Below are positions 1,962-44,932 of a stretch of DNA of 64,000 bases, piece after piece; position 1 is the stretch's first letter, and the number at the start of each line of letters is the position of its first letter. Source of the DNA: an uncultured Syntrophobacteraceae bacterium (GTDB taxonomy: Bacteria; Desulfobacterota; Syntrophobacteria; Syntrophobacterales; Syntrophobacteraceae); the NCBI GenBank assembly GCA_964603955.1, contig CAZRWT010000002.1, positions 18,014-82,013 of the forward strand, read 5' to 3'. Below the pieces are notes generated by a model that saw only the letters and a list, made by a program, of their open reading frames with translations, ran no database searches and was not told the origin of the DNA. A program made the position numbers and the translations under genes.

Positions 1962-3695
1962 TCACTGCCCGGAAGCTTTTGCATCCTGCCCCCGCTCCAG
2001 GAGTTCCACCGCATGAGCCCGGGTTTTTTCCGATATGGAGATCCCTCCCAACATGCGGGCCAGCTCCTCGATCCTCTCCCCTCTCGACAGGCTTCGAATG
2101 AGAGTCACCGTTTCTTCTCCCTTGAGTTCCTTGGTCACCTTGTAGTGGTGGTCTCCATGGGAGGCGATGGTGGGCATGTGCGTGATGCATACCACCTGGT
2201 GCTTTTGTGAAAGCTCTTTGAGCTGAAGGCCCACCAACTCGGCGGTTCTCCCCCCGATTCCCGTGTCCACTTCGTCGAAGATGAGGGTTTCCGCCTCACC
2301 CGAGCGGCTCAGGAGGCTCTTGACGGCCAGCAGGATACGGGAAAGCTCGCCCCCCGAGGCGACCTTCGCCAGGGGCTTCAGATCCTCTCCCGGATTGGCC
2401 GAGAGCAAGAACTGAAGCCGGTCGATACCCGTAGGACTGAAACGGGATTCGGTAATTTCAGCTCCGGGATCGGAGGGCTCTTCGAAACTCACGGAAAAGC
2501 GCGCCTTGCCCATATCCAGACACGTCAAGGTCTTTTGAACGGCCTGCGAGAGAAGCCCGGCGGTTTTTCGGCGCTGTCGGGAAAGCACGCCCGCCTTGCC
2601 GTTGTAGTCCGCACCGAGGGCGGCCAGCCTCTTTTCCAGCTCCGACTCCCGCTCCTGGGAGCCCTCTTCCTGAAGCAGGGAACCTTCGAGTTTTTTTTGA
2701 TGCTCGATCATGGCTTCCACAGTGCCCCCGTATTTCTTTCCCATACGGTGGAGCAGGGCCAGCCGATCCTCGATTTGGGCCAGCCGTGCCGGATCGAAAG
2801 AGACCCCCTGCCCGTATTGGTGAACGGCGTGGGCAAGCTCTTCCAGGTGGATGCGGGCCTGTTCCAGGTGCGTGTCGAGGGGAGCAAGGGATGCGTCTAT
2901 ACTTTGTAGGGTTTTCAGTTCCTTTTCCACGTTGGAGAGCTGTTCGAGGATGGCTCCCTTGCCCGCGTAGAGCAGCTGATGGGCTCCGCGTGAAGCTTCC
3001 GAAAGGGTGGCTGCGTGGCGCAGGAGATTTTTTTCCTTTTGCAGTTCGATGTCTTCATCGGGGATGAGCCTTGCCGTCTCGAGTTCATTGAGTTGAAAGC
3101 GCAGCCAGTCCATGCGATCGGCCTGTTCCGCACGGTCCTTGCGCAGCTTGCGGAGCGATTCCCGGCAGCGGGACCAGGCTTCGAAGGCTTCCCGCACTCC
3201 TTCCACCAGGGAATCGAGTTCCCCGAAGGTGTCCAGGAGGCCCACATGCACTTCCGGGTCCAGGAGGAGTTGGTGTTCGTGCTGGCCGGAAATGGAAATG
3301 AGTCCCCGGGACATCTGCTGGAGTTGCTGGAGGGTGATGGACTGGTCGCACAAGAAAATACGGTTGCGACCGTTGCGATGGATGACGCGGCGAATGACGA
3401 TCTCACTTCCATGGTATTCCAGCTCCCACCGGCGAAGCTTTTCCAGCAGGGAATGCTTTTCTCCAAGCTGGAACACCGCTTCCACCACGGCTTCCTTCGA
3501 TCCGGTGCGGATCATCTCCTGGGAAGCCCGGCTTCCCAGGATGAGGTTGACCGCCCCCACGATGATGGACTTTCCCGCACCCGTCTCGCCGGATAAAATA
3601 TTGAGACCGTCCTGCAAGACAACATTCAGGTCTCGGATAATGGCAAAATTGTGGACCGTAAGCTCACTGAGCACCAGAGGGCTCCTCCTGTTCAT
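1962..3695 (-). CDS. recN: DNA repair protein RecN
   Basis: N-terminus LTVHNFAIIRDLNVVLQDGLNILSGETGAGKSIIVGAV (Walker A). Long coiled-coil middle region. C-terminal SGGELSRILLAVK...LIFDEVDTGIGG (SMC signature and Walker B). Confidence 0.95.
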   Translation of the reverse strand: MNRRSPLVLSELTVHNFAIIRDLNVVLQDGLNILSGETGAGKSIIVGAVNLILGSRASQEMIRTGSKEAVVEAVFQLGEKHSLLEKLRRWELEYHGSEIVIRRVIHRNGRNRIFLCDQSITLQQLQQMSRGLISISGQHEHQLLLDPEVHVGLLDTFGELDSLVEGVREAFEAWSRCRESLRKLRKDRAEQADRMDWLRFQLNELETARLIPDEDIELQKEKNLLRHAATLSEASRGAHQLLYAGKGAILEQLSNVEKELKTLQSIDASLAPLDTHLEQARIHLEELAHAVHQYGQGVSFDPARLAQIEDRLALLHRMGKKYGGTVEAMIEHQKKLEGSLLQEEGSQERESELEKRLAALGADYNGKAGVLSRQRRKTAGLLSQAVQKTLTCLDMGKARFSVSFEEPSDPGAEITESRFSPTGIDRLQFLLSANPGEDLKPLAKVASGGELSRILLAVKSLLSRSGEAETLIFDEVDTGIGGRTAELVGLQLKELSQKHQVVCITHMPTIASHGDHHYKVTKELKGEETVTLIRSLSRGERIEELARMLGGISISEKTRAHAVELLERGQDAKASGQ

Positions 3696-4048
3696 TGCTC
3701 TTCAATCTATAGAAATCCTCAATGAATGCACCATGGTAGCATGAAACGGCAAAAATAAAAGAAAACATTTGAGCAGGGATAAAGCAAGCTGTCCATTATT
3801 TGTTGACTTTCAAGGTGCCGAACAGCCAAAAAAGTTTGGCTTTTCATCGAGGTCTTTGCTAACTTTACACTCTTGGCTTTGTGAAAACGCACGCTCGTGA
3901 AAGCAGCTTCACAGGCAGGGTAAGAGGCCGGACAAGCGGTTTCTTTAAGCTACAATTATCGGGCACTGTTCCACACTTATGGATTCCGAGCTTTCAACAT
4001 GCCAGGAAGGACATCAAACAGGAAGTGCATCAATAGAGGTTTGGAAGT

Positions 4049-6715
4049 ATGAAGCAGTGGTGGCGGAAAATCAGGAACAAAATCAAGTTTACCGGAAATC
4101 GGGATCCTTATGGTTATTCCCTGGATGTTAAACCGAAGGTGACTTTTCAGCGGTGGTTCGAGAAGCTCGTGGCCAAGATTTCCGTGCCCGAGGACCAACA
4201 GCGGCATCTGGAAGAACTTTCCCGCAAGGGATCCATCATCTATGCGATCAAGTACCGATCTCAACTGGACTACGTGTGCGCGTCCCTGAAGCTCCATCAG
4301 TTGGGAATTCCCAATGCGTCCTTCACCTTCGAGGTGAAGCCCTATTTCTGGCTTCCCAGGTGGCAGGCCTTCAAGCTGATCCTCTACCACTCCTGGCATC
4401 TCATTCGCCGCGGTTGCTTCCCCAATCCCTACGATGACGGCTACTATCACAGGAAAATCGAGGAGGGTGAATCGGGGCTGTTTTTCCTGCTCGGCAAGAA
4501 AGGATACTATAAGCGAGCGGTGCTGGTGGGTAACGATCCCATCGAACACCTGGTCGAATATCAAAAAGAGAGTTCCCGGCCCATCTTCCTGGTTCCTCTG
4601 GTGATTCTCTATCGGCGGCATCCCGGAAAGGAACGGGGCAACGGCTTTCGCCCCCTGGCAGGCCCTGCCGACCGGTTGAGCGGTATACGCAAGTTCTTTT
4701 ATTTTGTGGGAGGGTACTCGCATGCGGTGCTCGAGGTGGGCGAGGAGGTGAACCTACAGGAAGTTCTTCCGGAGCTTTCCGAAAAAACCGACGAAAAGCG
4801 CAAGCAGATTTTTACGCTGCGGAGGGATCTGATCGAGTCGGGAGAAAAAATTCGAAGAGCCATTGTGGGTCCCACCATCAAAGGGTCTCTCGAACTCAAG
4901 GAAATCATCCTCCACCACCCGCGACTGGAAGCATTCATGCGGCGCCGGGCACGTTCGAGCAACGTGGAAATATGGAAAGTGCGCAAGGAAGCCGACGGCT
5001 ATCTCGATGAAATCGCCGCCGGCTACAACCACACCGTTGTGGAAGTAGGGGCACGTTTTCTCACCTGGATATGGAACAATCTTTTCGACGGTATCGATGT
5101 GGATCAGGAATCCTTGCAGAGAGTCAAGAAAGTGGCTCGCGACAAGACGCTCGTGTACATCCCCTGTCACAAGAGTCACATCGATTATCTGATTTTGTCC
5201 TACATTTTGTTCCAGAACAACCTGTTCACCCCCTTTGTCGCGGCGGGAAGGAATCTGGCTTTCTGGCCGTTGGGGCCCATCTTCAGGCGCTGCGGAGCCT
5301 TCTTCATCCGCAGAAGCTTTAAGGGAGCTAAGTTCTACGCGGAAATCTTCTCCCTTTATGTGAAGACCATGGTGCAGCTGGGTCACAACATCGAATTTTT
5401 CATCGAGGGAGGACGAAGCCGCACGGGGAAAATGGTGCTCCCCAAGATGGGACTCCTGGCCATTCTCATACAGGCTGTGGAGGACGGTTTCTGTGACGAA
5501 CTGGTATTTGTGCCCACGTCCATCTGCTATGATCGTATTCCCGAAGAGGAATCCTACATGAAGGAGATCACCGGGGGGAGCAAGGTGGACGAAAACATCG
5601 GCCAGTTGGTTAAGGCCAGGAAATTTCTCAAGAAGCGCTATGGACGGGTTTACGTGCAGTTCGCCCAGCCCCTTTCCTTGCAACGTCACCTGGAGCGGTA
5701 TCGCACCGTCGATGGCAAAATGCGCCCTCGCGACCGCCACGCCATGTACCGGGACTTTGCCTATCGCATCATCAACAGTATCAACCAGTCCTCCCTGGTG
5801 ACGCCCCATGCCCTGGCGGCTTCGGCACTCCTGTGGTCTCCCCAGAAGGGGGTGTCCATGGCCGAATTCAACGAGGTCAGCCAGACGTTCCGTGAGTACC
5901 TGACCCTCCGTGGAGTGAGGTTTTCCAATACCTTGCGCCACTACGAAAAGTGCATGGAGGAAACCCTGACGGACCTGGAAAAGGGCAAGCTAGTCGGCAA
6001 GCTCAAGGACGACGACGACGACCTCGAAGAGGAGGTCTTCACCATGGACGACAACAAGCGGCTCATGCTCGAATACTACAAAAACAACATCCTCCATTTC
6101 CTTCTGCCTGCGGCTTTCGTTTCCACTTCCATCCTGGCCCAGGAAGCTTTCCAGTTCAGCCTGGCCAGGGTTACGGAAGATGTGGACTTCATGACGAATT
6201 TTTTCAAATATGAGTTCGTTTACGACAACCAGGTTCCCCCGGAAAAGCTCATCGACGATGTGCTCCAAAGCTTTGAATCCCTGGGATGGGTCCGGCGCGT
6301 GGGGGCCGATGACCAGCCTTACCAGTTGAATTCAAGGGGATTGCGAGCGGCTCATTTTTTCCATGGGCTCATTCGCAATTACCTGGAAGGTTACTGGCTG
6401 GTTTTGAGGGCTCTGAAGTACTTGCAGAAAAAACCCTACAACGAGCGAGATTTCCTGAAAAAAGTGCTCGGTCTGGGAAACAAGGCTCTCAAACTGCAAC
6501 TCATCGAACGTCCCGAAGCCGTTTCCAAGATCATCTTCACCAATGCCGTCAAATATTATGTGGAAAAGGGAGCCATGGGCAAAAAGCAGGACGACTCCCA
6601 GGGAAAGGACAAGGAGGTGGATGTTTACGTGGATGCTGGAAATCGAGTCCTGGTACAACATTTCAGCAAGGAAATCAGTCGTTTCATGAGGCTGCCGCAT
6701 TTCACTCTGCAATGA
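4049..6715 (+). CDS. plsB: glycerol-3-phosphate 1-O-acyltransferase (PlsB-type)
   Basis: 888 aa. Acyltransferase motifs HKSHIDYLILSY (HX4D), FFIRRSF and FIEGGRSRTGK. Size and layout match PlsB. Confidence 0.85.
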   Translation: MKQWWRKIRNKIKFTGNRDPYGYSLDVKPKVTFQRWFEKLVAKISVPEDQQRHLEELSRKGSIIYAIKYRSQLDYVCASLKLHQLGIPNASFTFEVKPYFWLPRWQAFKLILYHSWHLIRRGCFPNPYDDGYYHRKIEEGESGLFFLLGKKGYYKRAVLVGNDPIEHLVEYQKESSRPIFLVPLVILYRRHPGKERGNGFRPLAGPADRLSGIRKFFYFVGGYSHAVLEVGEEVNLQEVLPELSEKTDEKRKQIFTLRRDLIESGEKIRRAIVGPTIKGSLELKEIILHHPRLEAFMRRRARSSNVEIWKVRKEADGYLDEIAAGYNHTVVEVGARFLTWIWNNLFDGIDVDQESLQRVKKVARDKTLVYIPCHKSHIDYLILSYILFQNNLFTPFVAAGRNLAFWPLGPIFRRCGAFFIRRSFKGAKFYAEIFSLYVKTMVQLGHNIEFFIEGGRSRTGKMVLPKMGLLAILIQAVEDGFCDELVFVPTSICYDRIPEEESYMKEITGGSKVDENIGQLVKARKFLKKRYGRVYVQFAQPLSLQRHLERYRTVDGKMRPRDRHAMYRDFAYRIINSINQSSLVTPHALAASALLWSPQKGVSMAEFNEVSQTFREYLTLRGVRFSNTLRHYEKCMEETLTDLEKGKLVGKLKDDDDDLEEEVFTMDDNKRLMLEYYKNNILHFLLPAAFVSTSILAQEAFQFSLARVTEDVDFMTNFFKYEFVYDNQVPPEKLIDDVLQSFESLGWVRRVGADDQPYQLNSRGLRAAHFFHGLIRNYLEGYWLVLRALKYLQKKPYNERDFLKKVLGLGNKALKLQLIERPEAVSKIIFTNAVKYYVEKGAMGKKQDDSQGKDKEVDVYVDAGNRVLVQHFSKEISRFMRLPHFTLQ

Positions 6716-6834
6716 TTGGGTGACGACTCGAGTGGGAATGTAACCGTCGTCCGTGGGTGGATCATGGCGGGCGCTCGAGCCCGGCATTGTAAAGGGCGTT
6801 TGATGTCAGTAAAGACAGACCAGGGAGAAAGTGT

Positions 6835-7911
6835 ATGAAAATCAGTATTGAGCCGGTGGACCCCGCCAGGCGGCGTCCAAAACCGGAAGACGAAACGAAA
6901 CTCGTCTTTGGCAGAACATTCAGCGATCACATGTTCATGATGGATTACTTCGAAGGGCGGGGCTGGGTGGAACCGAGAGTCGTTCCCCACCAGAGTCTCA
7001 TCATGGACCCGGCGGCCATGGTCCTGCACTACGGGCAGGGCATCTTCGAGGGACTCAAAGCCTACCGCACCCAAAGCGGCAAGGTCAATCTCTTCCGACC
7101 GCGCTCCAACTGGGAACGGCTAAATCGCTCGACCGCCCGCATGTGCATGCCTCAAGTGGATGTGGATTTTCAATTCGAGATCATCGAAGCCCTTTTGAAA
7201 ATAGATCAGGATTGGATTCCTCACACCATGGGGTCCTCCTTGTACATTCGGCCCACCGTGATCGCCAATGAACCCCACCTGGGCGTACGGCCCGCACGCC
7301 AATACCTTTATTTCATCATAATGGGGCCCGTAGCCGCCTACTATGCGGAGGGTTTCAATCCCGTGAGCATCTATGTCGCGGGCGAACATGTGCGAGCCGT
7401 GAGGGGCGGCGTGGGAGAAGCCAAAACCATGGGCAATTACGCCGCCAGCCTTTACGCGGCGGAAATAGCCAAGAAAAAAGGCTTCACTCAGGTGCTCTGG
7501 CTCGATGCAGTGGAAAGAAAATACGTGGAAGAAGTGGGCACCATGAACATTTTCTTCCGCATCAAAGGCGAGCTGGTGACCCCCCCTCTCAATGGATCGA
7601 TCCTTCCTGGAATCACCAGGGATTCGGTCATACAGTTGGCCCGCCACTGGGAAATCCCAGTGGTCGAGCGGCCCGTGAGCATCGATGAAGTGGTGGACAC
7701 CATCGAATCGGGAGATATGAAGGAAGTTTTCGGCACGGGCACCGCCGCAGTCGTTTCTCCCGTGAAGTCTATTTCCTACAAGGACAAAAACTATAAAGTT
7801 CAAAATGGCGAAGTGGGAGAATGGGCGCAGAAGCTACATGATGAAATCGTCGGCATTCAATATGGTACGAAGGAAGACCCCTTCGGCTGGATATATGAGG
7901 TCAAGTTGTAG
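6835..7911 (+). CDS. ilvE: branched-chain amino acid aminotransferase (class IV)
   Basis: 358 aa. Motifs FEGLKAYR, GEAKTMGNYAASL, EEVGTMNIFF and LPGITRD are typical of long-form IlvE. RBS GGGAGAAAG upstream. Confidence 0.9.
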   Translation: MKISIEPVDPARRRPKPEDETKLVFGRTFSDHMFMMDYFEGRGWVEPRVVPHQSLIMDPAAMVLHYGQGIFEGLKAYRTQSGKVNLFRPRSNWERLNRSTARMCMPQVDVDFQFEIIEALLKIDQDWIPHTMGSSLYIRPTVIANEPHLGVRPARQYLYFIIMGPVAAYYAEGFNPVSIYVAGEHVRAVRGGVGEAKTMGNYAASLYAAEIAKKKGFTQVLWLDAVERKYVEEVGTMNIFFRIKGELVTPPLNGSILPGITRDSVIQLARHWEIPVVERPVSIDEVVDTIESGDMKEVFGTGTAAVVSPVKSISYKDKNYKVQNGEVGEWAQKLHDEIVGIQYGTKEDPFGWIYEVKL

Positions 7912-8091
7912 GAACCTGCCGGATAGGCGGGGACATGGCATTGTCGCTGGAGAGTCTTCAAGGCGGGGGGCTTGAATTTCGTCCATTCGAAGGTTAAATA
8001 TGATTTGAAGTCGACGATGAGTCGCCTTCTACCAACCCCTCCCGGCCTCGTTCAGAATTCCCCCCCTCCTGCTGAACGAGGCCATTCTTTT

Positions 8092-14735: not shown

Positions 14736-14780
14736 TGGGCAAGCCAAGTCGCACACAAACCACGCCAACAATAATACGCG

Positions 14781-14974
14781 ATGTGCATCTTTCTTGTTCC
14801 CAAGCTCCAGCTTGGGAACACACTTGCCTGGAAGCTCCAGCTTCCCGTTTCGAAGCGGGTGGAAGCCGGAGCTTCCACAATAATAAAGGCGTTCCCAAGC
14901 TGGAGCTTGGGAACGAGAGATTTGGAGCTTGGGAACGAGAGGTTTGGCAAGGGGGGCATCAAAAAGTTGCACAT
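14781..14974 (+). repeat. MITE-like nested-palindrome element, copy A (between sucA and sucB)
   Basis: Termini ATGTGCATCTTT ... AAAGTTGCACAT form an imperfect 12-bp TIR. Internal hairpins are GTTCCCAAGCTCCAGCTTGGGAAC, GGAAGCTCCAGCTTCC...GGAAGCCGGAGCTTCC and GTTCCCAAGCTGGAGCTTGGGAAC. Near-identical to copy E. Confidence 0.85.
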
Positions 14975-15003
14975 GGGGTAATAAGATGGAACGAGGGACT
15001 GCC

Positions 15004-16242: not shown

Positions 16243-16279
16243 AATCATCTGGTAGCATCTGCCGCGCAGGAATTAGGCC

Positions 16280-16358
16280 ATATGCAACTTTCTTGTTCCC
16301 AAGCTCCAGCTTGGGAACACACTTGTCCGGAAGTTCCAGCTTCCCTTTTGAAAGGGGG
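16280..16358 (+). repeat. MITE-like element, copy B (left half only, truncated)
   Basis: ATATGCAACTTTCTTGTTCCCAAGCTCCAGCTTGGGAACACACTTGTCCGGAAGTTCCAGCTTCCC matches the left arm of copies A, D and E. The right half is missing, and the element abuts the Uma2 start. Confidence 0.75.
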
Positions 16359-16361
16359 AAA

Positions 16362-16937
16362 ATGATGGAAACCCCAGCGCGGGAACCCCGGTACTCTCCA
16401 GAACAGTACCTGGCCATGGAGCGAAGGGCGGACCACAAGAGCGAGTACATGGACGGTCGCGTGTTTGCCATGGCGGGAGCGAGCAGGCAGCACAACCAGA
16501 TAACGTTCAATCTCTCCGTGGCAATGGGGATTCAGCTCAAAAAACGGCCGTGTGTTGCCTATTCGAGCGATATGCGCGTTAAAGTGACCCAAACGGGTTT
16601 GTATGCCTACCCTGATGTCGTGGCCACATGCAATGAACCTCAATTCGAGGATTCCTTTTTGGACACTCTGTTGAACCCTCAAGTCATCATCGAGGTGTTA
16701 TCGGAATCCACGGAATCTTATGATCGAGGCAGCAAATTCGCCCACTATCGCAGGCTCGATTCGTTGCAGGAATATGTGCTCGTTGCTCAAAACGCAATGT
16801 GCGTCGAGCATTATGCACGCCGCAGGGAGAAATGGCTTCTTACGGAAATCAGCCTGTCGAGGGGAGAGCTTCATCTCCGATCCATTGGCTGCACCATACC
16901 CTTGACGGACATTTACGACAAAGTGCCTTTGCCTTGA
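16362..16937 (+). CDS. Uma2-family (DUF820) putative endonuclease
   Basis: Start at MMETPAREPRYSPEQYLAMERRADHKSEYMDGRVFAMAGASRQHNQI (GGGGGAA RBS). The pattern E..G.i..M.g....H and later EVLSEST...D...K...Y is typical of Uma2. Confidence 0.8.
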   Translation: MMETPAREPRYSPEQYLAMERRADHKSEYMDGRVFAMAGASRQHNQITFNLSVAMGIQLKKRPCVAYSSDMRVKVTQTGLYAYPDVVATCNEPQFEDSFLDTLLNPQVIIEVLSESTESYDRGSKFAHYRRLDSLQEYVLVAQNAMCVEHYARRREKWLLTEISLSRGELHLRSIGCTIPLTDIYDKVPLP

Positions 16938-29169: not shown

Positions 29170-29260
29170 TCTCGTTCCCAAGCGGAGCTTGGGAACGAGG
29201 GAACGAGCTGCTTTTGGTTCCCAGGCCGGAGCTTGAGAATCGGAGGAAAAATTTACACAT
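29170..29260 (+). repeat. MITE-like element, copy C (degenerate, right-end half)
   Basis: TCTCGTTCCCAAGCGGAGCTTGGGAACGAG ... GGTTCCCAGGCCGGAGCTTGAGAA ... AAATTTACACATGG matches the right arm and terminus of the family. Confidence 0.6.
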
Positions 29261-29687
29261 GGAGTACTATGACAGTATTGAAGGCTCAGCTCAACTCATT
29301 TCAGATGGGGGACGAGTTTCCATGACAGCTGCCGATCTCATGGGGGTGCAGGAAAATCCATGTGCTTTTCTTATCAAGCAGCTTGACTTGAATGATGCAA
29401 CTGGTTTAAGAAACGGTTTGAATTCTCAGATGGTGTGAGCTTGCTCCATGCTCTTATATATTTTGTCGGTGAGTCGAAATTTCCAGGTGTTTCTCATGGC
29501 TGCCGGGTGTGAGAGCGAAGAGCAGGAGTGGAAATTTTCCCATTTCCCTTACGAGGTGTCCGGTTTGTCCATTGTCTGCTTCCCCATTATCAGATCATGC
29601 GAAGGGTTGACGTGATTTTTTTGGTCGGGCGGCAGTGGCTGGGGCTCTCGTGTTTCGAGGGGAATGGGTTTTTTTATGGTTTTGTTT

Positions 29688-29802: not shown

Positions 29803-32800
29803 ATGTTCATGAATGAAAAAAAAGCATCTCAGCCAGTAACTGGCGCGGTAATGGTGGTTGGAGGCGGTATCGCCGGGGTGCAGTCGGCTCTCGATCTGGC
29901 GGAGTCGGGCTACTACGTTTACCTGGTGGAAAACAGCCCTTCCATTGGTGGTGTGATGGCGCAGTTGGACAAGACTTTTCCGACCAACGACTGTTCCATG
30001 TGTATCCTTTCCCCCAAGCTGGTGGAAGGGGGCCGTCACCTCAACATTAAACTCATGACCCTGTGCGATGTGGAAGCCCTCGATGGAGAGGCCGGCAATT
30101 TCACCGTGACGGTGAAGGAACGCCCGAGATACATCGATACGACAAAGTGCATCGCCTGCGGGGTCTGTGCCGAAAAGTGCCCCAAGAAGGTCGAGGACAC
30201 CTTCAATGAAGGCCTGGGACCTCGCAAGGCGGCTTACGTCAAGTATCCCCAGGCGGTTCCTCTCAAGTATGCCATCGACGAGGACAACTGTATTTATTTC
30301 AAAAACGGCAAGTGCCGCGCCTGTGAAAAGTTCTGTCCCGCCGGTGCTGTTGATTTCAATCAGAAGCCTCAGACGCACACCGTCCAGGTGGGTTCCGTCA
30401 TTCTCGCCCCCGGCTTCAAGGCCTTCAGCCCCGAAGTCTATGATACCTACGGTTTCGGGAAATATCCCAACGTGATCACCAGCATGCAGTTTGAGCGCAT
30501 CCTGAGTGCTTCGGGTCCCTTCGAAGGCCACCTGGTGCGTCCTTCCGACAAGAAGGAGCCCAAAAAGATTGCCTGGCTCCAGTGCGTGGGGTCCCGCGAC
30601 ATCCACCATGGGGCTCACGGCTACTGTTCCGGCGTGTGCTGTATGTACGCCATCAAGGAAGCGGTCATCGCCAAGGAGCATTCCAAGGAAGGGCTCGATA
30701 CGGCCATCTTCTTCATGGACATGCGCACTTACGGCAAGGATTTCGAGCGCTATTACAACCGGGCCAAAGGAGAGACGGGGGTACGCTTCATCCGGTCCCG
30801 TATCCACAGTGTGGCCACCCTTCCCGGTACCGATGACCTGGTGCTCGAATATGCCGACGAAAACGGTCAGCTTCAAAGTGAAGTCTTCGACATGGTGGTT
30901 TTGTCCATCGGCCTGGAAATCGGCGACGAACTGAAGAAAATGGCGGAAAGAATCGGAGTGGGGCTCGATGCCGATGGGTTTGCGCAAACGAGCTGCTTCA
31001 CGCCCGTGGCCACTTCGAAAGAAGGTGTTTTCGCCTGTGGCGCCTTTTCCGGTCCCAAGGACATTCCCTACTCGGTCATGGAAGCATCCGCGGCATCTGC
31101 GGCATCCGCCGCCCTGCTTTCTTCCGTGCGGGGCACCCTCACCCAGGAAAAGACCTACCCGGCCGAGGAGGATGTGGAAAAAGAAGAGCCGCGTGTCGGT
31201 GTTTTTGTCTGCCATTGCGGCATCAACATCGGCAGCGTGGTGAATGTTCCAGGGGTGAAGGAATATGCCCGGTCCCTCCCCGGAGTGGCTTACGTGGCGG
31301 AAAACCTTTTCACCTGTTCGCAGGACACGCAGCAGATCATTCGCGATGCCATCAAGGAACACAAGCTCAACCGCGTAGTGGTGGCGGCCTGTACGCCCCG
31401 CACCCATGAGCCCCTCTTCCAGGAAACCATCCGCGAGGCGGGCCTCAACCGTTATCTTTTTGAACTGGCCAACATTCGCGACCAGGATTCCTGGGTGCAT
31501 CAGGCCGAACCCGAAAAGGCCACGGAAAAGGCCAAGGACCTGGTGCGCATGGCGGTGGCCAAGGTGGCGTTGCTCGAACCTATCGAGCGCATGAGGGTCG
31601 ATTTGAACCAGGATGCCCTGGTGATCGGCGGTGGTGTTTCGGGCATGAGCGCCGCCGTGAACCTGGCGGACCAGGGCTTCAAGACCTACCTTGTCGAGGA
31701 AAAGCCCGAACTTGGCGGCCATGCCCTCAAGGTGCATAAGACCTGGAAAGGCGAAGATGTTGCTTCCTACGTCAAGGCACTGGTGGACAAGGTCGAAAAG
31801 CATGCCAATATCGAGGTGCTCAAGGGCGCCAAGGTGACCGATGTTTCCGGCTTCGTGGGGCAGTTCAAGACCACGGTGCAGACCGACGGCGCGGCTCGCG
31901 AATTGGAGCACGGGGTGGCCATTATCGCCACGGGCGCTCATTCCCTGGCTCCCGATCTGTACCTCTACGGTCAAAATGATCGCGTGAGCCGCTGGCACGA
32001 CTTGCAAAAAATGCTTGAGGAAGACCCCAAAAAGCTGGACGAGGCGGAAGCTGTGGCCTTCATCCAGTGTGTAGGGTCCCGCGAACCCGAACGTCCCTAC
32101 TGCTCGAAAATCTGCTGTACCGCTTCGGTGCAACAGGCACTGGACCTCAAGGCGAAAAAGCCGGACCTGGATGTTTACATCCTGTATCGCGACATGCGTA
32201 CTTACGGCGGACGGGAAGACCTGTACAAAAAGGCCCGCGAGCAGGGCGTTCTTTTCATTCGTTTCAACCAGGATGAAAAGCCGACCGTGGAAGCCGTGAA
32301 GGACGGCGGCAAGGAAAAATTGCGGCTCACCGTCAAGGACCATATCCTGGGGCGTCCCATCAAGATCGATGTGGATTACCTCAACCTGGCCACGGCCATC
32401 ATTCCCAAGGGCCAGGAAGAGCTGGCCAAGTTCTTCAAGGTGCCCCTCAATGAAGACGGCTTCTTCCTGGAAGCCCACATGAAACTGCGCCCGGTGGATT
32501 TTGCCACGGACGGCGTGTTCATTGCCGGTCTGGCGCATTATCCCAAGCCCATCGAGGAGTCCATCGCCCAGGCCCAGGCGGCGGCGGCTCGGGCATCGAG
32601 CGTGCTGGCCAAGCCCTATGTCGAGGTCGAGCCGGTTGTTTCCGTGGTGAACCAGGATATGTGTATCGGCTGCGGACTCTGTGAAGCTTCCTGTCCCTTC
32701 GGGGCCATTCGGCTGCACAAAATCGTCGGCAAGGGGTATCGAGCTGAAACCATTTCCGCATCCTGCAAGGGCTGCGGTGTTTGCGCCGCGTCGTGTCCCA

Positions 32801-32877
32801 TGAAAGCCATCGACATGATGCATTTCCGTGACCGTCAAATCTGTGCTGCGATTCGTGCGGGTGGTGCACGTCAATAG
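29803..32877 (+). CDS. hdrA: large HdrA-like flavoprotein (internally duplicated HdrA core; HdrL-like), Cys form
   Basis: 1024 aa. First FAD site VVGGGIAGVQSALDLAESG; second dinucleotide site VIGGGVSGMSAAVNLADQG. Two copies of the HdrA cluster motif are present: CVGSRDIHHGAHGYCSGVCC and CVGSREPERPYCSKICC. Several ferredoxin-type CxxCxxCxxxCP motifs. Confidence 0.88.
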   Translation: MFMNEKKASQPVTGAVMVVGGGIAGVQSALDLAESGYYVYLVENSPSIGGVMAQLDKTFPTNDCSMCILSPKLVEGGRHLNIKLMTLCDVEALDGEAGNFTVTVKERPRYIDTTKCIACGVCAEKCPKKVEDTFNEGLGPRKAAYVKYPQAVPLKYAIDEDNCIYFKNGKCRACEKFCPAGAVDFNQKPQTHTVQVGSVILAPGFKAFSPEVYDTYGFGKYPNVITSMQFERILSASGPFEGHLVRPSDKKEPKKIAWLQCVGSRDIHHGAHGYCSGVCCMYAIKEAVIAKEHSKEGLDTAIFFMDMRTYGKDFERYYNRAKGETGVRFIRSRIHSVATLPGTDDLVLEYADENGQLQSEVFDMVVLSIGLEIGDELKKMAERIGVGLDADGFAQTSCFTPVATSKEGVFACGAFSGPKDIPYSVMEASAASAASAALLSSVRGTLTQEKTYPAEEDVEKEEPRVGVFVCHCGINIGSVVNVPGVKEYARSLPGVAYVAENLFTCSQDTQQIIRDAIKEHKLNRVVVAACTPRTHEPLFQETIREAGLNRYLFELANIRDQDSWVHQAEPEKATEKAKDLVRMAVAKVALLEPIERMRVDLNQDALVIGGGVSGMSAAVNLADQGFKTYLVEEKPELGGHALKVHKTWKGEDVASYVKALVDKVEKHANIEVLKGAKVTDVSGFVGQFKTTVQTDGAARELEHGVAIIATGAHSLAPDLYLYGQNDRVSRWHDLQKMLEEDPKKLDEAEAVAFIQCVGSREPERPYCSKICCTASVQQALDLKAKKPDLDVYILYRDMRTYGGREDLYKKAREQGVLFIRFNQDEKPTVEAVKDGGKEKLRLTVKDHILGRPIKIDVDYLNLATAIIPKGQEELAKFFKVPLNEDGFFLEAHMKLRPVDFATDGVFIAGLAHYPKPIEESIAQAQAAAARASSVLAKPYVEVEPVVSVVNQDMCIGCGLCEASCPFGAIRLHKIVGKGYRAETISASCKGCGVCAASCPMKAIDMMHFRDRQICAAIRAGGARQ

Positions 32878-33845: not shown

Positions 33846-36800
33846 ATGATGAACGCTAGCAATAACAATAAAGTCGGCGCTGTAATGGTCGTCGGAGCCG
33901 GCATCGCCGGCATGCAGGCGGCCCTGGACCTGGCAGATTCAGGTTATTACGTCCATCTCGTGGACCGCTCACCCACCGTGGGCGGGATCATGGCTCAGCT
34001 GGACAAGACGTTCCCGACCAACGACTGTGCCATGTGAGTCATCTCACCCAAACTGGTCGAGGTCGGCCGGCATCATAATGTAAATATCATCACCAACTCT
34101 TCCGTTGATTCTCTGGAGGGGGAAGCTGGAAACTTTACGGCAAAGCTCAAAACTCAACCGAGGTACATCGATCCGCTGCGCTGCACCGGTTGCGGCGACT
34201 GCGCCAAGGTGTGCCCCGTGACAAGCGTCAACGAGCACAACTGTGGACTGGACAAGCGTGCGGCTACCTATATCCGCTATGCTCAGGCCGTGCCCCTGGT
34301 TTTTGCCATCGATACGGACATCTGTATCGGGTGCGGCCTTTGTGAAAAAGTGTGTCTGGCCCAGGCCATCAAGTACGACGATCAGGCCCGCTACACCGAA
34401 GTGAAGATCGGGTCCGTCATTTTGGCCACCGGTAACGACGTGTTCGATCCTTCTCATTTCGATACCTACAGCTACGCTCAACTTCCCAACGTGATCACCA
34501 GTATGGAGTTCGAGCGTATTCTCAGTGCTTCCGGTCCTTATATGGGCCATCTCATGCGGCCCTACGACCGGGAAGAGCCCAGAAAGGTCGCCTGGTTGCA
34601 ATGCGTGGGTTCCCGAGACACGCACCACTGTGACAATCCCTACTGTTCGGGCGTGTGTTGTATGTATGCCATCAAGGAAGCCGTCATCGCCAAGGAGCAT
34701 TCGCACAGCGGCATGGAGGCGTCCATCTTCTATATGGACATGCGCACTTACGGAAAAGACTTCGAGCAGTATTACGACAAGGCCAAGGAAGAAGGCGTGC
34801 GATTTATCCGGTCGCGCGTCCATTCGGTGGAACCGGTGGGGGATGGAGACCTCGAAATCACCTATGCGGATGAAACCGGCCAGGTCAAGCAGGAAGTGTT
34901 CAACCTGGTGATCCTTTCCGTAGGGTTCCAGGTAGGGAAGGAAGGCATCGAGCTTGCTGAAAAGCTTGGTATCGACCTCAATGAAAACCGTTTCGTCAAA
35001 ACCGACAGTTTCACCCCCGTGGCCACTTCGCGGGAAGGTGTGTATGTCTGCGGAACCTTCCAGGGTCCCAAGGACATTCCCCAGTCCGTGATGGAAGCAT
35101 CGGCGGCGGCGTCGGCATCCAGCCTCCTTTTGAGCGACGCGCGCTGGACCGAAGCCACGGTCAAGGAAAAGCCCACGGAAAGAAATATCATCGGTGAACG
35201 CCCCCGCATCGGCGTGTTTGTGTGCCAGTGCGGTATCAACATCGGCGGCATCGTGAACATTCCCAAGGTGCGGGAATATGCCCGTACCCTGCCTTATGTG
35301 ACTTATGTGGAAGACAATCTCTATACCTGTTCCCAGGACACCCAGGTGAAAATGGCCCAGGTGATCAAGGAACAGGGGATCAACCGCGTGGTGGTGGCTG
35401 CCTGTACGCCTCGTACTCACGAGCCTCTCTTCCAGGAGACTCTGGCCAACGCGGAACTGAACAAGTACCTCTTTGAAATGGCCAACATTCGAAACCAGGA
35501 TTCCTGGGTGCATTCGGGCGATCCCGTGAAAGCCACGGAGAAAGCCATGGACCTGGTGCGCATGGCCGTTTCCAAGGTAGCCCTCCTCGAACCCCTCAAG
35601 GAATCGGAACTGGGAGTGACGAGGAAGGCCATGGTGGTCGGCGGCGGTGTTGCCGGCATGGTGGCGGCCAAGGAACTGGCGGACCAGGGGTATCCCGTGT
35701 ACCTCGTGGAGAGGTCTGCACAGTTGGGCGGCCAGGCGAGGAAGCTGTTCCAGACCTGGAGGGGCGAGAGCATCCCGGCCTATGTGGATGAGCTGGCCAA
35801 AGAAGTGGAAAACCACCCCAACATCACGCTTTACCTGAACAGTGAACTGAAAAACGTGGACGGGTTTGTAGGGAATTTCAAGTCTACCATTCAAAACGGC
35901 GGTGAACCGGAACTCGTCGAGCACGGGGTCACCATCATCGCCACGGGTGGTCGAGAACTGCAACCCGAGGAATATTGCTATAAAAAACATCCCCGTATCG
36001 TGACGCATCAGGAACTGGATCAGCGGTTCGCTGAGAAAGATCCCAGTCTCAAGAGCATCAACAGTGCCGTTTTCATTCAGTGCGTGGGCTCGCGAGAACC
36101 TGACCGTCCCTATTGCAGCCGAGTTTGCTGCACCCATTCCGTGGAGAGCGCTCTCGAGCTGAAAAAGCTCAATCCCGAAAGTGATGTGTATGTGCTCTAC
36201 CGGGATATGCGGACTTACGGGGAACGTGAATTGATTTACCAGGAAGCCCGCAAGAAAGGTGTGATCTTCATCCGCTACTCCCTGGACAACAAGCCCCAGG
36301 TGGAAGTGGTGAACGACAAGGTCCAGGTGACCGTGTTCGATCCCATCCTTCAGCGGCCCATCCGTGTGGTGAGTGACCTGGTGACGCTGGCGACGGCCAT
36401 CCTTCCCAATGAAACCGATGCCCTGTCTCAGTTTTTCAAGGTACCGGTCAACGCGGAAGGGTTTTTCATCGAGGCCCATGCCAAGCTGCGTCCCGTGGAT
36501 TTCTCCACGGACGGTGTGTTTTTATGCGGTCTGGCCCACTATCCCAAGGCCATTGACGAGAGCATCGCTCAGGCCAAGGCTGCGTCGGCCCGCGCCGCGA
36601 CCCTCCTGGCTCGCGACTCGATTTTCTTCAGTGGGATGGTGGCCTACACGAGGCCCATCGATTGCAGCAGCTGCGGGGTTTGTGTGAGCATCTGCCCGTT
36701 CAGTGCGCCGCGTTTCATCGAGACGGGGCGGGATGCGGGCAAGGCGGAAATCAACCCGGCTCTTTGCAAGGGCTGCGGGCTTTGCGTGGCTTCGTGCCGT

Positions 36801-36866
36801 TCGGGTGCCATCGGGCTGCGAGGCTTCGATGACTCCCAGATTTTTGCCATGATCGATAATGTTTGA
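33846..36866 (+). CDS. hdrA: large HdrA-like flavoprotein, selenocysteine form (UGA at 34035..34037)
   Basis: Track ORFs 33846..34037 and 34209..36866 share a frame, and I read no other stop between them. [21 protein letters not shown] aligns to FPTNDCSMCILSPKLVEGG of the paralog at 29803. The rest is collinear with paralog 1 ([37 protein letters not shown]). Confidence 0.85.
34053..34070 (+). other. putative bacterial SECIS-like hairpin for UGA 34035
   Basis: CTGGTCG aggt CGGCCGG: a 7-bp stem including 2 G-U pairs, loop AGGU, starting 15 nt after the UGA. Confidence 0.5.
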
Positions 36867-43188: not shown

Positions 43189-43300
43189 GCGGGGCGACTG
43201 TTCATGGATGGTGCCCAAAGTATGCGTTCCCACGCAGGAATGTGGGAATGAGGGGCAAGTGGTTGTGGTGAAACCTCAAACTTCGAAGGGGAGCTGAGCA

Positions 43301-44614: not shown

Positions 44615-44643
44615 GGTGGGCCATGAGAACGTCTTTATACGCG

Positions 44644-44890
44644 ATGTGCAACTTTCTTGTTCCCAAGCTCCGGCTTGGGAACACACTTGCCTGGAAGCTC
44701 CAGCTTCCACCTTGTCATCCTGTTCAAAAGCTCCCCGTGAACTGGTCAACGAATCCAGGGGCTGCTTCCCCACGCCACGAAGATTGGAAGCGGGAGCTTC
44801 CAAGGCAAAGGCATCCCCAAGCTGGAGCTTGGGAACGAGAAGTAGAGAGGCCGAAGGGGGTGATAAACGCACTTTCGAAAAGTTGCACAT
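44644..44890 (+). repeat. MITE-like element, copy D (perfect 12-bp TIRs, divergent centre)
   Basis: ATGTGCAACTTTCTTGTTCCCAAGCTCCGGCTTGGGAAC ... CCCCAAGCTGGAGCTTGGGAACGAGA ... AAAGTTGCACAT. The central stem GGAAGCTCCAGCTTCC...GGAAGCGGGAGCTTCC encloses a longer loop than in copies A and E. Confidence 0.85.
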
Positions 44891-44932
44891 AACGTTCCTA
44901 ACGGTTGTCGGCTCCATGGTGATTTTTGTTTT

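Follow-up and report, generated by a model that had tools for sequence, protein, structure and literature searches.

A 64-kb stretch of DNA from an uncultured Syntrophobacteraceae bacterium (contig CAZRWT010000002.1; called here the window, meaning all 64,000 nucleotides analysed) contains a family of dispersed palindromic repeats, five copies of which (A to E) had been recognised in a first-pass annotation made from the letters alone. We conclude that these repeats are probably non-autonomous elements resembling REP doublets forming hairpins (REPINs, where REP stands for repetitive extragenic palindrome) and bacterial interspersed mosaic elements (BIMEs), mobilised in trans by a REP-associated tyrosine transposase (RAYT). 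The comparison with REP and BIME sequences made in that annotation was the right one, as the core of the element is a REP hairpin of a kind that flanks RAYT genes elsewhere.

The full unit extends from TACGCG to GGGGT(A) and measures ~205-260 nt. Homology among genomic copies, followed in contigs, runs from 14775 (TACGCG) to 14979/14980 (GGGGT[A]) in copy A and starts at 44638 in copy D. The unit is slightly larger than first described, and these boundaries give a terminal inverted repeat (TIR) of 18 nt, TACSSSATGTGCAACTTT, with a 12-nt core that is perfect in copy D, as had been stated. Ends resembling ATGTGCAACTTT are enriched in the window. Inside the ends lies a 24-nt hairpin with a 10-bp stem, GTTCCCAAGC-N4-GCTTGGGAAC, present twice per full unit (H1 on the left, H1' on the right) together with two inner hairpins (H2 and H2'). 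It has 8 plus-strand matches in the 64 kb, all inside the reported copies, against 0.01 expected from shuffled sequences. The motif GGAAGC-N3-AGCTTCC, with at most one mismatch, has 15 strand matches against 0.09 expected, and 14 of these represent seven sites within A, B, D and E read on both strands. The right 10-bp hairpin is the reverse complement of the left, with a TGGA loop facing a TCCA loop, so the entire element forms one large inverted repeat of local palindromes. The centre had been described as a single long hairpin; it consists of two local palindromes and a small central stem.

Copies A to E were confirmed at the places first given for them and align as one family (with 94% identity between A and E across 150 nt), and two more relics, F and G, raise the original count of five (Table 1). 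The GGGGT that was thought to be conserved after the right end is found in A and E only, being replaced by GGAGT in C, GGCGT in G and AACGT in D. The foot of the hairpin in the window is GTGT (left halves, minus strand), AGGC or GTATGC, and not the canonical GT[AG]G. In contigs of other copies, H1 is joined to a right end of the relic-G type via a ~30-35-nt linker. All copies are intergenic and lie between co-directional genes, in the gene contexts correctly named before and also between sucB and a Uma2 gene. The shared orientation reported earlier holds for 6/6 orientable copies (A-E and G; two-sided chance ~0.03), and the GC skew of the window rises monotonically throughout. RNA folds of the full element reach ~-100 to -111 kcal/mol, with z from -7 to -10 across the computed folds: -111 kcal/mol (z -10.4) for copy A and -99.8 kcal/mol (z -7.4) for the transcribed strand of copy E, while the DNA fold of copy D has -70.6 kcal/mol (z -9.4). 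A sigma-54 or sigma-70 promoter at the right end was ruled out by its spacing on inspection.

Table 1. Positions of the element copies, their parts and the relics in the window.
Feature	Position	Strand	Description and context
Copy A	14775..14980	+	Full element; sucA-sucB spacer; boundaries from contigs of other copies
Copy A, left TIR	14775-14792		
Copy A, H1	14796-14819		
Copy A, H2	14830-14845		
Copy A, central stem	14844-14859		
Copy A, H2'	14861-14876		
Copy A, H1'	14891-14914		REP strand
Copy A, tandem half-hairpin repeat	14901-14946		22 nt
Copy A, right TIR	14963-14980		
Copy B	16274..16358	+	Left half only; between sucB and Uma2 gene
Copy B, TIR-like end			TAGGCCATATGCAACTTT
Copy B, H1	16295-16318		
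Copy B, H2	16329-16344		
Copy B, central stem			
Copy C	29171..29266	+	Degenerate right half; two right-type hairpins
Copy C, 3-nt-loop hairpin	29174-29196		GTTCCCAAGC-GGA-GCTTGGGAAC
Copy C, second hairpin	29217-29240		Decayed
Copy C, right end	29249-29266		AAATTTACACATGGAGTA
Relic F	43220..43253	+	Solo variant REP, GTATGC GTTCCCACGC AGGA ATGTGGGAAT GAG; flanked by a 423-aa gene and a UPF0047 gene
Copy D	44638..44896	+	Full, longer centre; between dCMP deaminase and DUF882 genes (both minus strand)
Copy D, H1	44659-44682		
Copy D, H2	44693-44708		
Copy D, H2'	44786-44801		
Copy D, H1'	44813-44836		
Copy E	48461..48676	+	Full; between Hsp70-like and DUF3731 genes (minus strand)
Copy E, H1	48498-48521		
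Copy E, H2	48532-48547		
Copy E, H2'	48563-48578		
Copy E, H1'	48593-48616		
Relic G	51520..51556	+	Right-end fragment (…CGAAAAGTTGCGCATGGCGTA); between histidine-kinase gene and DUF2760 gene

Confinement to the window, a possibility raised when the element was first described, is not borne out, and the element is not restricted to the source organism either. In a scan of one genome per species, from which copy numbers and taxonomic spread are lower bounds, the exact hairpin was found in at least 118 loci. Many belong to Planctomycetota and Desulfobacterota, including the isolates Geomonas and Citrifermentans, and further carriers were found in Methylococcales, Thiotrichaceae, Verrucomicrobiota, Campylobacterota, a cyanobacterium, Ignavibacteria and other groups. 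Bins of metagenome-assembled genomes (MAGs) may be contaminated; the hairpin family is nonetheless carried by the isolates Geomonas, Citrifermentans, Schlesneria and Desulfatibacillum alkenivorans. Sixteen stretches of contigs catalogued as viral in IMG/VR (L127-L142) also hold exact hairpin modules, with unchanged architecture.

The left side of the module is composed of a pyrimidine-rich run, CTC, H1 with a TCCN loop, GCA…, a small hairpin nAAGC-TCYR-GCTTn and a variable centre. The right side is its mirror image, …GTGC-H1'(NGGA)-GAG followed by a purine-rich run, and the outer half-arm is often in tandem. On the strand with NGGA loops, the REP unit begins with the small hairpin nAAGC-NGGA-GCTTn and continues through a 7-14-nt linker, often ending in GTGC, to the 10-bp hairpin GTTCCCAAGC-NGGA-GCTTGGGAAC and then GAG. 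A doublet consists of two of these units, inverted relative to each other, and in the source organism the 18-nt inverted end is added outside it. The loops keep GGA and leave the first base free: among 144 exact hairpins, 58 have NGGA and 53 have TCCN. On the NGGA strand, 53% of instances have GAG and 33% have CAG as the 3' flank. GTGC forms the foot of the RAYT-flanking copies; at the 5' foot of dispersed copies it is the commonest 4-mer, yet at only 12%, with GTGG at 3%. H2' is present in 90/148 instances, 10-14 nt upstream of H1', and its outer pair is Watson-Crick in 79/90, with three pair types. The outer ends vary by lineage (e.g. L084) around a common core. An outer GTTGCR motif was considered as a general part of the REP unit and rejected, as it is not enriched (19/154 vs 13/148 in the background), and for the same reason the resemblance of the L147 flank to the TIR of the window is anecdotal. 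In a Desulfobacteraceae MAG (L099, 6054-6450), three tandem units of ~186 nt each contain an exact H1.

Among the at least 118 loci, no protein family recurs beside the hairpins except common housekeeping families, and no transposase recurs. In 4 of the 118 listed loci (L034, L067, L080, L112), vs ~0.2 expected, an ispD gene is found no more than a few hundred bases from an exact hairpin; these loci are from Planctomycetota and Methylobacter, and the placement relative to ispD varies. A Uma2 (PD-(D/E)XK) gene follows sucB both in the window (16362-16937) and in L119 (1560-2144), and another adjoins an element in a Schlesneria MAG (L039, 527-1150). The Uma2 endonuclease was ruled out as a partner enzyme, its gene being found in 1 of the 118 listed loci.

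A search of all retrieved loci for HUH/Y1 motifs returned one open reading frame (ORF), located on a Thermoguttaceae contig (L016) that also carries an exact H1. Scored against NCBIfam NF047646 (REP-associated tyrosine transposase), the protein aligns along the full length of the model with 78.8 bits, the cut-off being 80, and REPs of the form GTGC-GTTCCCACGC-GAA-GCGCGGGAAC stand on either side of the ORF, with a small hairpin before each. It belongs to a large, uniform family of 177-178-aa homologues, with 1343 matches at E <= 1e-5 for the L016 query and 2676 at E <= 1e-20 for the query P0230. Many of them are named RayT at the source. Planctomycetota account for most of the named proteins, and the family members often lie on very short contigs. 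Every homologue with readable DNA (L016, L143, L144, L145, L147, L148) is flanked by inverted REPs of the hairpin family. These read GTGC GTTCCCACGC AAA GCGTGGGAAC GAG in L143, inverted and on both sides; GTTACCACGC AGA GCGTGGTAAC in L144; GTTCCCAC…GTGGGAAC in L145; and GAAGCGGAGCTTC-N9-GTTCCCAAGC-GGA-GCTTGGGAAC-GAG, with an exact GAAGCGGAGCTTC…GTTCCCAAGCGGAGCTTGGGAAC GAG, in L147, which encodes P0230. In the isolate Schlesneria paludicola (L148, encoding P0265), GTTGCCAAGC-TCC-GCTTGGCAAC and GTTACCAAGC-(N)GGA-GCTTGGTAAC are found on both sides. The hairpin beside the RAYT gene of L147 is identical to the 3-nt-loop hairpin of copy C.

Four of the five proteins scored (P0230, P0131, P0202 and P0229) lie above the curated NF047646 cut-off, and the hairpin-linked proteins obtain 79-104 bits on the REP-associated model vs 13-24 bits on the IS200 model. 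A ten-member family profile compared with the PDB has E. coli TnpA-REP (4ER8) as its sole match, with the HUH and Y motifs aligned. The stems beside different RAYTs are compensatory (GTTCCC/GGGAAC, GTTACC/GGTAAC and GTTGCC/GGCAAC), so that the stem co-varies with the RAYT. Between genomes, the two arms change in concert at the fourth stem position, as would be expected if the enzyme reads the folded hairpin.

Evidence for high copy number and recent insertion comes from the home sample, an activated-sludge metagenome (run X1) in which 98% of the words sampled from the window are present, and from two lake-water runs (X3 and X4) with a strain ~97-99% identical to the window. SucB of the window shares only 59-63% identity with named proteins (Desulfobacterota-like and other). 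In X1, contig depth is 35-40 for the flanking genes; summed over contigs, it amounts to ~1600 at the right end of the element and to 3000-8000 over the hairpins, so the element region is 40-200x deeper than the single-copy flanks. The right-end contigs listed in X1 have depths of 24-47 (four at 39-47), near the depth of the organism, and their flanks differ. These depths and differing flanks indicate dozens of copies in the genome, roughly 40-50 for the right end. Contigs in X1-X4 stop within hairpins.

In the X3/X4 strain, a contig joins 14765 to 14986 directly with seven letters between, showing that copy A is absent; this strain does have copies D and E. More distant relatives are empty at that site as well: the sucA-sucB spacer, 269 nt long in the window, is short in all three examined, with 56 nt (L123), ~50 nt (L119) and 14 nt (L120). 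At the sucB-Uma2 site of L119, a relic of the right-end type lies in the opposite orientation where the window has the left half (copy B). The empty sites point to recent and repeated insertion into AT-rich spacers. The first-pass annotation had suggested non-autonomous transposons as one possibility; the X3/X4 empty site and the depth in X1 support a dispersed, non-coding, non-autonomous family that is recently mobile. At 48461-48494, copy E has its left terminal 16 nt twice in tandem (TACGCGATGTGCAACC TACACGATGTACAACTTT), which may be the trace of a second, abortive end-joining event.

We propose the following mechanism. The activity that moves the copies of the window genome would come from a single-copy RAYT (an HUH/Y1 nuclease) whose gene would lie elsewhere in the genome. 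On single-stranded DNA this enzyme would recognise the hairpin in its folded form together with the foot, cut, and rejoin nearby, and doublets would thereby spread, probably at the replication fork, into intergenic spacers that are AT-rich. Fork-linked, single-strand insertion would then account for the uniform orientation of the copies in the replichore. An element within an operon would be transcribed into the mRNA, and a hairpin of ~-100 kcal/mol could form on either strand. Because the doublet is symmetric, transcription in either direction would place UCCN-loop hairpins 5' and NGGA-loop hairpins 3', and the two kinds could zip into one long RNA hairpin. Any influence on mRNA stability or processing would be secondary and of the REP-like kind. 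Effects on mRNA decay and processing are such a secondary consequence of REP, BIME and Correia elements.

Several observations weigh against a RAYT-mobilised REPIN. The 64-kb window, the part of the source genome covered by the search, contains no HUH/Y1 ORF. The RAYT link is extrapolated to the window's own lineage from other genomes, the RAYT-flanked examples being all from Planctomycetota plus one literature case in Desulfobacterota. When X1 and X3 contigs were aligned to the RAYT gene of L016, the REP was matched and the gene was not. In place of the canonical head GT[AG]G the elements have GTGC, GTGT or GTAT, and dispersed copies keep the foot only weakly; the orientation bias concerns six copies only. 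[quoted passage not shown]

The main rival explanation, which we consider rather unlikely, is accordingly a classical MITE: double-stranded DNA moved by a transposase of the DDE class, which would bind the 18-nt TACSSSATGTGCAACTTT and leave a short target duplicated. The target would be AATAA, or TA as in elements of the IS630/Tc1 type, and the REP hairpins would have been picked up as cargo or would belong to a REPIN in or around which the MITE arose. The TIR itself agrees with this explanation, as does the coincidence of its ends with the homology boundaries of the other copies. Copy A has AATAA on both sides, and its empty site is most simply explained by a 5-bp duplication; this inference is based essentially on that single young copy. 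E is flanked by AAACC/AAAACC with an offset and D has no duplication, so that neither shows a clean one. TA is found at 5/5 left and 3/5 right ends, but the empty site in X3/X4 is without TA, and the dinucleotide could equally belong to the TIR. Solo relics of the TIR type without hairpins (G and L119), and outer ends that are lineage-specific around the common core (as in L084), would likewise suit a MITE. Against these points, an inverted repeat at the ends is expected in any case, because everything in a REPIN is inverted-symmetric, and DDE insertion is not expected to give a uniform orientation. An autonomous insertion sequence (IS) with matching TIRs, which the first-pass annotation proposed to look for, did not emerge: no IS with ends TACGCGATGTGCAACTTT was found in the window, in the at least 118 loci or in a plasmid collection, a scan of JGI metagenomes for the left end of the subfamily gave one partial match, and no transposase lies in the window or near any copy. 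The MITE-like label of the first-pass annotation implies a DDE transposon with a parent IS and target-site duplications, and in that form it is not supported: the TIR is present, but no parent IS was found and the evidence for target duplication is equivocal.

Returning to mobilisation by a RAYT, a broader possibility is that the hairpin and a compact RAYT clade constitute a horizontally spreading REPIN-RAYT system, of which the doublet in the window lineage is a REPIN/MITE hybrid. We put this forward tentatively, as a proposal with less than even chances. The hairpin GTTNCCAAGC-NGGA-GCTTGGN'AAC is conserved with little change over Planctomycetota, Desulfobacterota, Methylococcales, Verrucomicrobiota, Campylobacterota, cyanobacteria and others, and the doublet may have gained transposon-like 18-nt ends and a target duplication in the window lineage.

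It is improbable that the repeats are instead a host regulatory RNA module, such as GGA-loop hairpins bound by CsrA-type proteins, an RNase III site or a stability element, that is kept by selection and not by transposition. The conservation of GGA in loops with a free first base would be compatible with such a role, as would the order of UCCN and NGGA loops obtained from either strand, the location of all copies within operons and the very stable RNA folds. In addition, one metatranscriptome contig extends from copy D's flanking sequence into the copy itself, a weak sign that this copy is transcribed. Known CsrA sites have an A(N)GGA context. The tetraloop here lacks it, no Rfam family matches, and the conservation of the hairpin is accounted for by its linkage to RAYTs. 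The insertion polymorphism and the dozens of copies with unrelated flanks imply spread rather than site-specific regulation. Least probable, and very hard to sustain, is a palindrome-associated transposable element (PATE) of the IS200/IS605 type, in which TnpA-IS200 reads direct hairpins at both ends and inserts 3' of a fixed 4-5-nt target with no duplication: the hairpins are subterminal, the strand-biased insertion gives one orientation for all copies and the enzyme class would be HUH/Y1, as for RAYTs, but the end hairpins are inverted (reverse complements with TCCA and TGGA loops) and not direct copies, no target tetranucleotide is conserved on the left (flanks AATAA, TTTA, AACC and AAT), and the linked proteins score low on the IS200 model.

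The nearest known counterparts are REP, REPIN and BIME sequences with their RAYT (TnpA-REP), reportedly those of E. coli and Pseudomonas, in work attributed to Nunvar in 2010, Bertels and Rainey in 2011, Ton-Hoang in 2012 and Quentin in 2018. The present family resembles them in its short, GC-rich extragenic palindromes of high copy number, in the inverted doublets that fold into long hairpins, in clusters of alternating orientation and in its location within operons. It also shares with them hairpins that flank a single small HUH/Y1 gene (a REPtron) and stems that co-vary with the transposase. In contrast to textbook REPs, the foot is GTGC, GTGT or GTAT instead of GT[AG]G, the unit has two hairpins that are both topped by AAGC-NGGA-GCTT, tandem half-hairpin repeats lie outside H1, and in the source genome the unit additionally carries an 18-nt inverted end and may have a 5-bp duplication. 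The chief difference is that the hairpin of this family is near-identical over many phyla, whereas REPs have been described as species-specific (Quentin et al. 2018, PMC6006769). The type of element is a known one, a REP/REPIN with a RAYT, and it is unusual mainly through this cross-phylum near-identity.

The first-pass annotation did not recognise the sequence as a named family. Rfam covariance models agree, with 0 matches over the whole window and chance-level matches only around copy A (E >= 0.8), but a related REP has been tabulated before. Table S1 of PMC6006769 lists the REP GTATGCATTCCCACGCAAAGCATGGGAACGAG beside the Y1 transposase ACL04004.1 of Desulfatibacillum alkenivorans AK-01; the REPs of this organism were manually identified there, one with subclass '0' and the others with '?', and have no family description. 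They share with the present family the foot, lower stem and tail, GTATGC-(A/G)TTCCCACGC…GGGAAC-GAG, which are close to those of relic F, and the lower stem of H1' is the same. They differ in the upper stem and loop, CGC-AAA-GC(A/G) as opposed to AGC-NGGA-GCT here. These are the only closely related sequences that we found in the searchable literature: text searches for the hairpin matched only primers or had no match, a keyword search was empty, and the motif is absent from the GTAG/CGTC REP paper.

Among bacterial MITEs, Chunjie, Correia, Nezha and ERIC resemble the present elements in their length of 100-260 nt, TIRs, non-coding nature, non-disruptive insertion in operons and stable RNA folds. 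They are unlike them in that here neither a parent IS nor a consistent duplication is seen and the core is linked to RAYTs. Chunjie of Geobacter uraniireducens is described as A+T-rich, 178-235 bp long, with 21-bp TIRs and 9-bp direct repeats (PMC3184786); by that description it is set apart from the present elements, which have a GC-rich core and no 9-bp repeats.

Two neighbouring gene arrangements in the window should also be mentioned. A cluster encoding DUF2760, an Hsp70-like protein (608 aa) and a DnaK-related DUF3731 protein (973 aa) occupies 45495-51456 on the minus strand, downstream of a large hybrid histidine kinase, and copy E and relic G lie in its spacers. At 29803-32877 and ~33876-36866 there are tandem paralogues of ~1000 aa each with Pyr_redox_2 and 4Fe-4S domains, which are HdrA-like; they contain blocks of 73-76% nucleotide identity ~4.0 kb apart.

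The identification of these elements explains conspicuous intergenic repeats that break metagenome assemblies and that, in an uncultured bacterium from sludge, lie within operons for central metabolism and chaperones. It also links them to a RAYT clade of >2,600 members whose REP partners have scarcely been described. If the horizontal spread of a REPIN-RAYT system is true, it would provide a counter-example to the long-term vertical residence and species specificity of REPs. The polymorphism of copy A, present in the window and absent from the lake-water strain, offers a natural experiment on how a hairpin of ~-110 kcal/mol bears on sucA-sucB expression.

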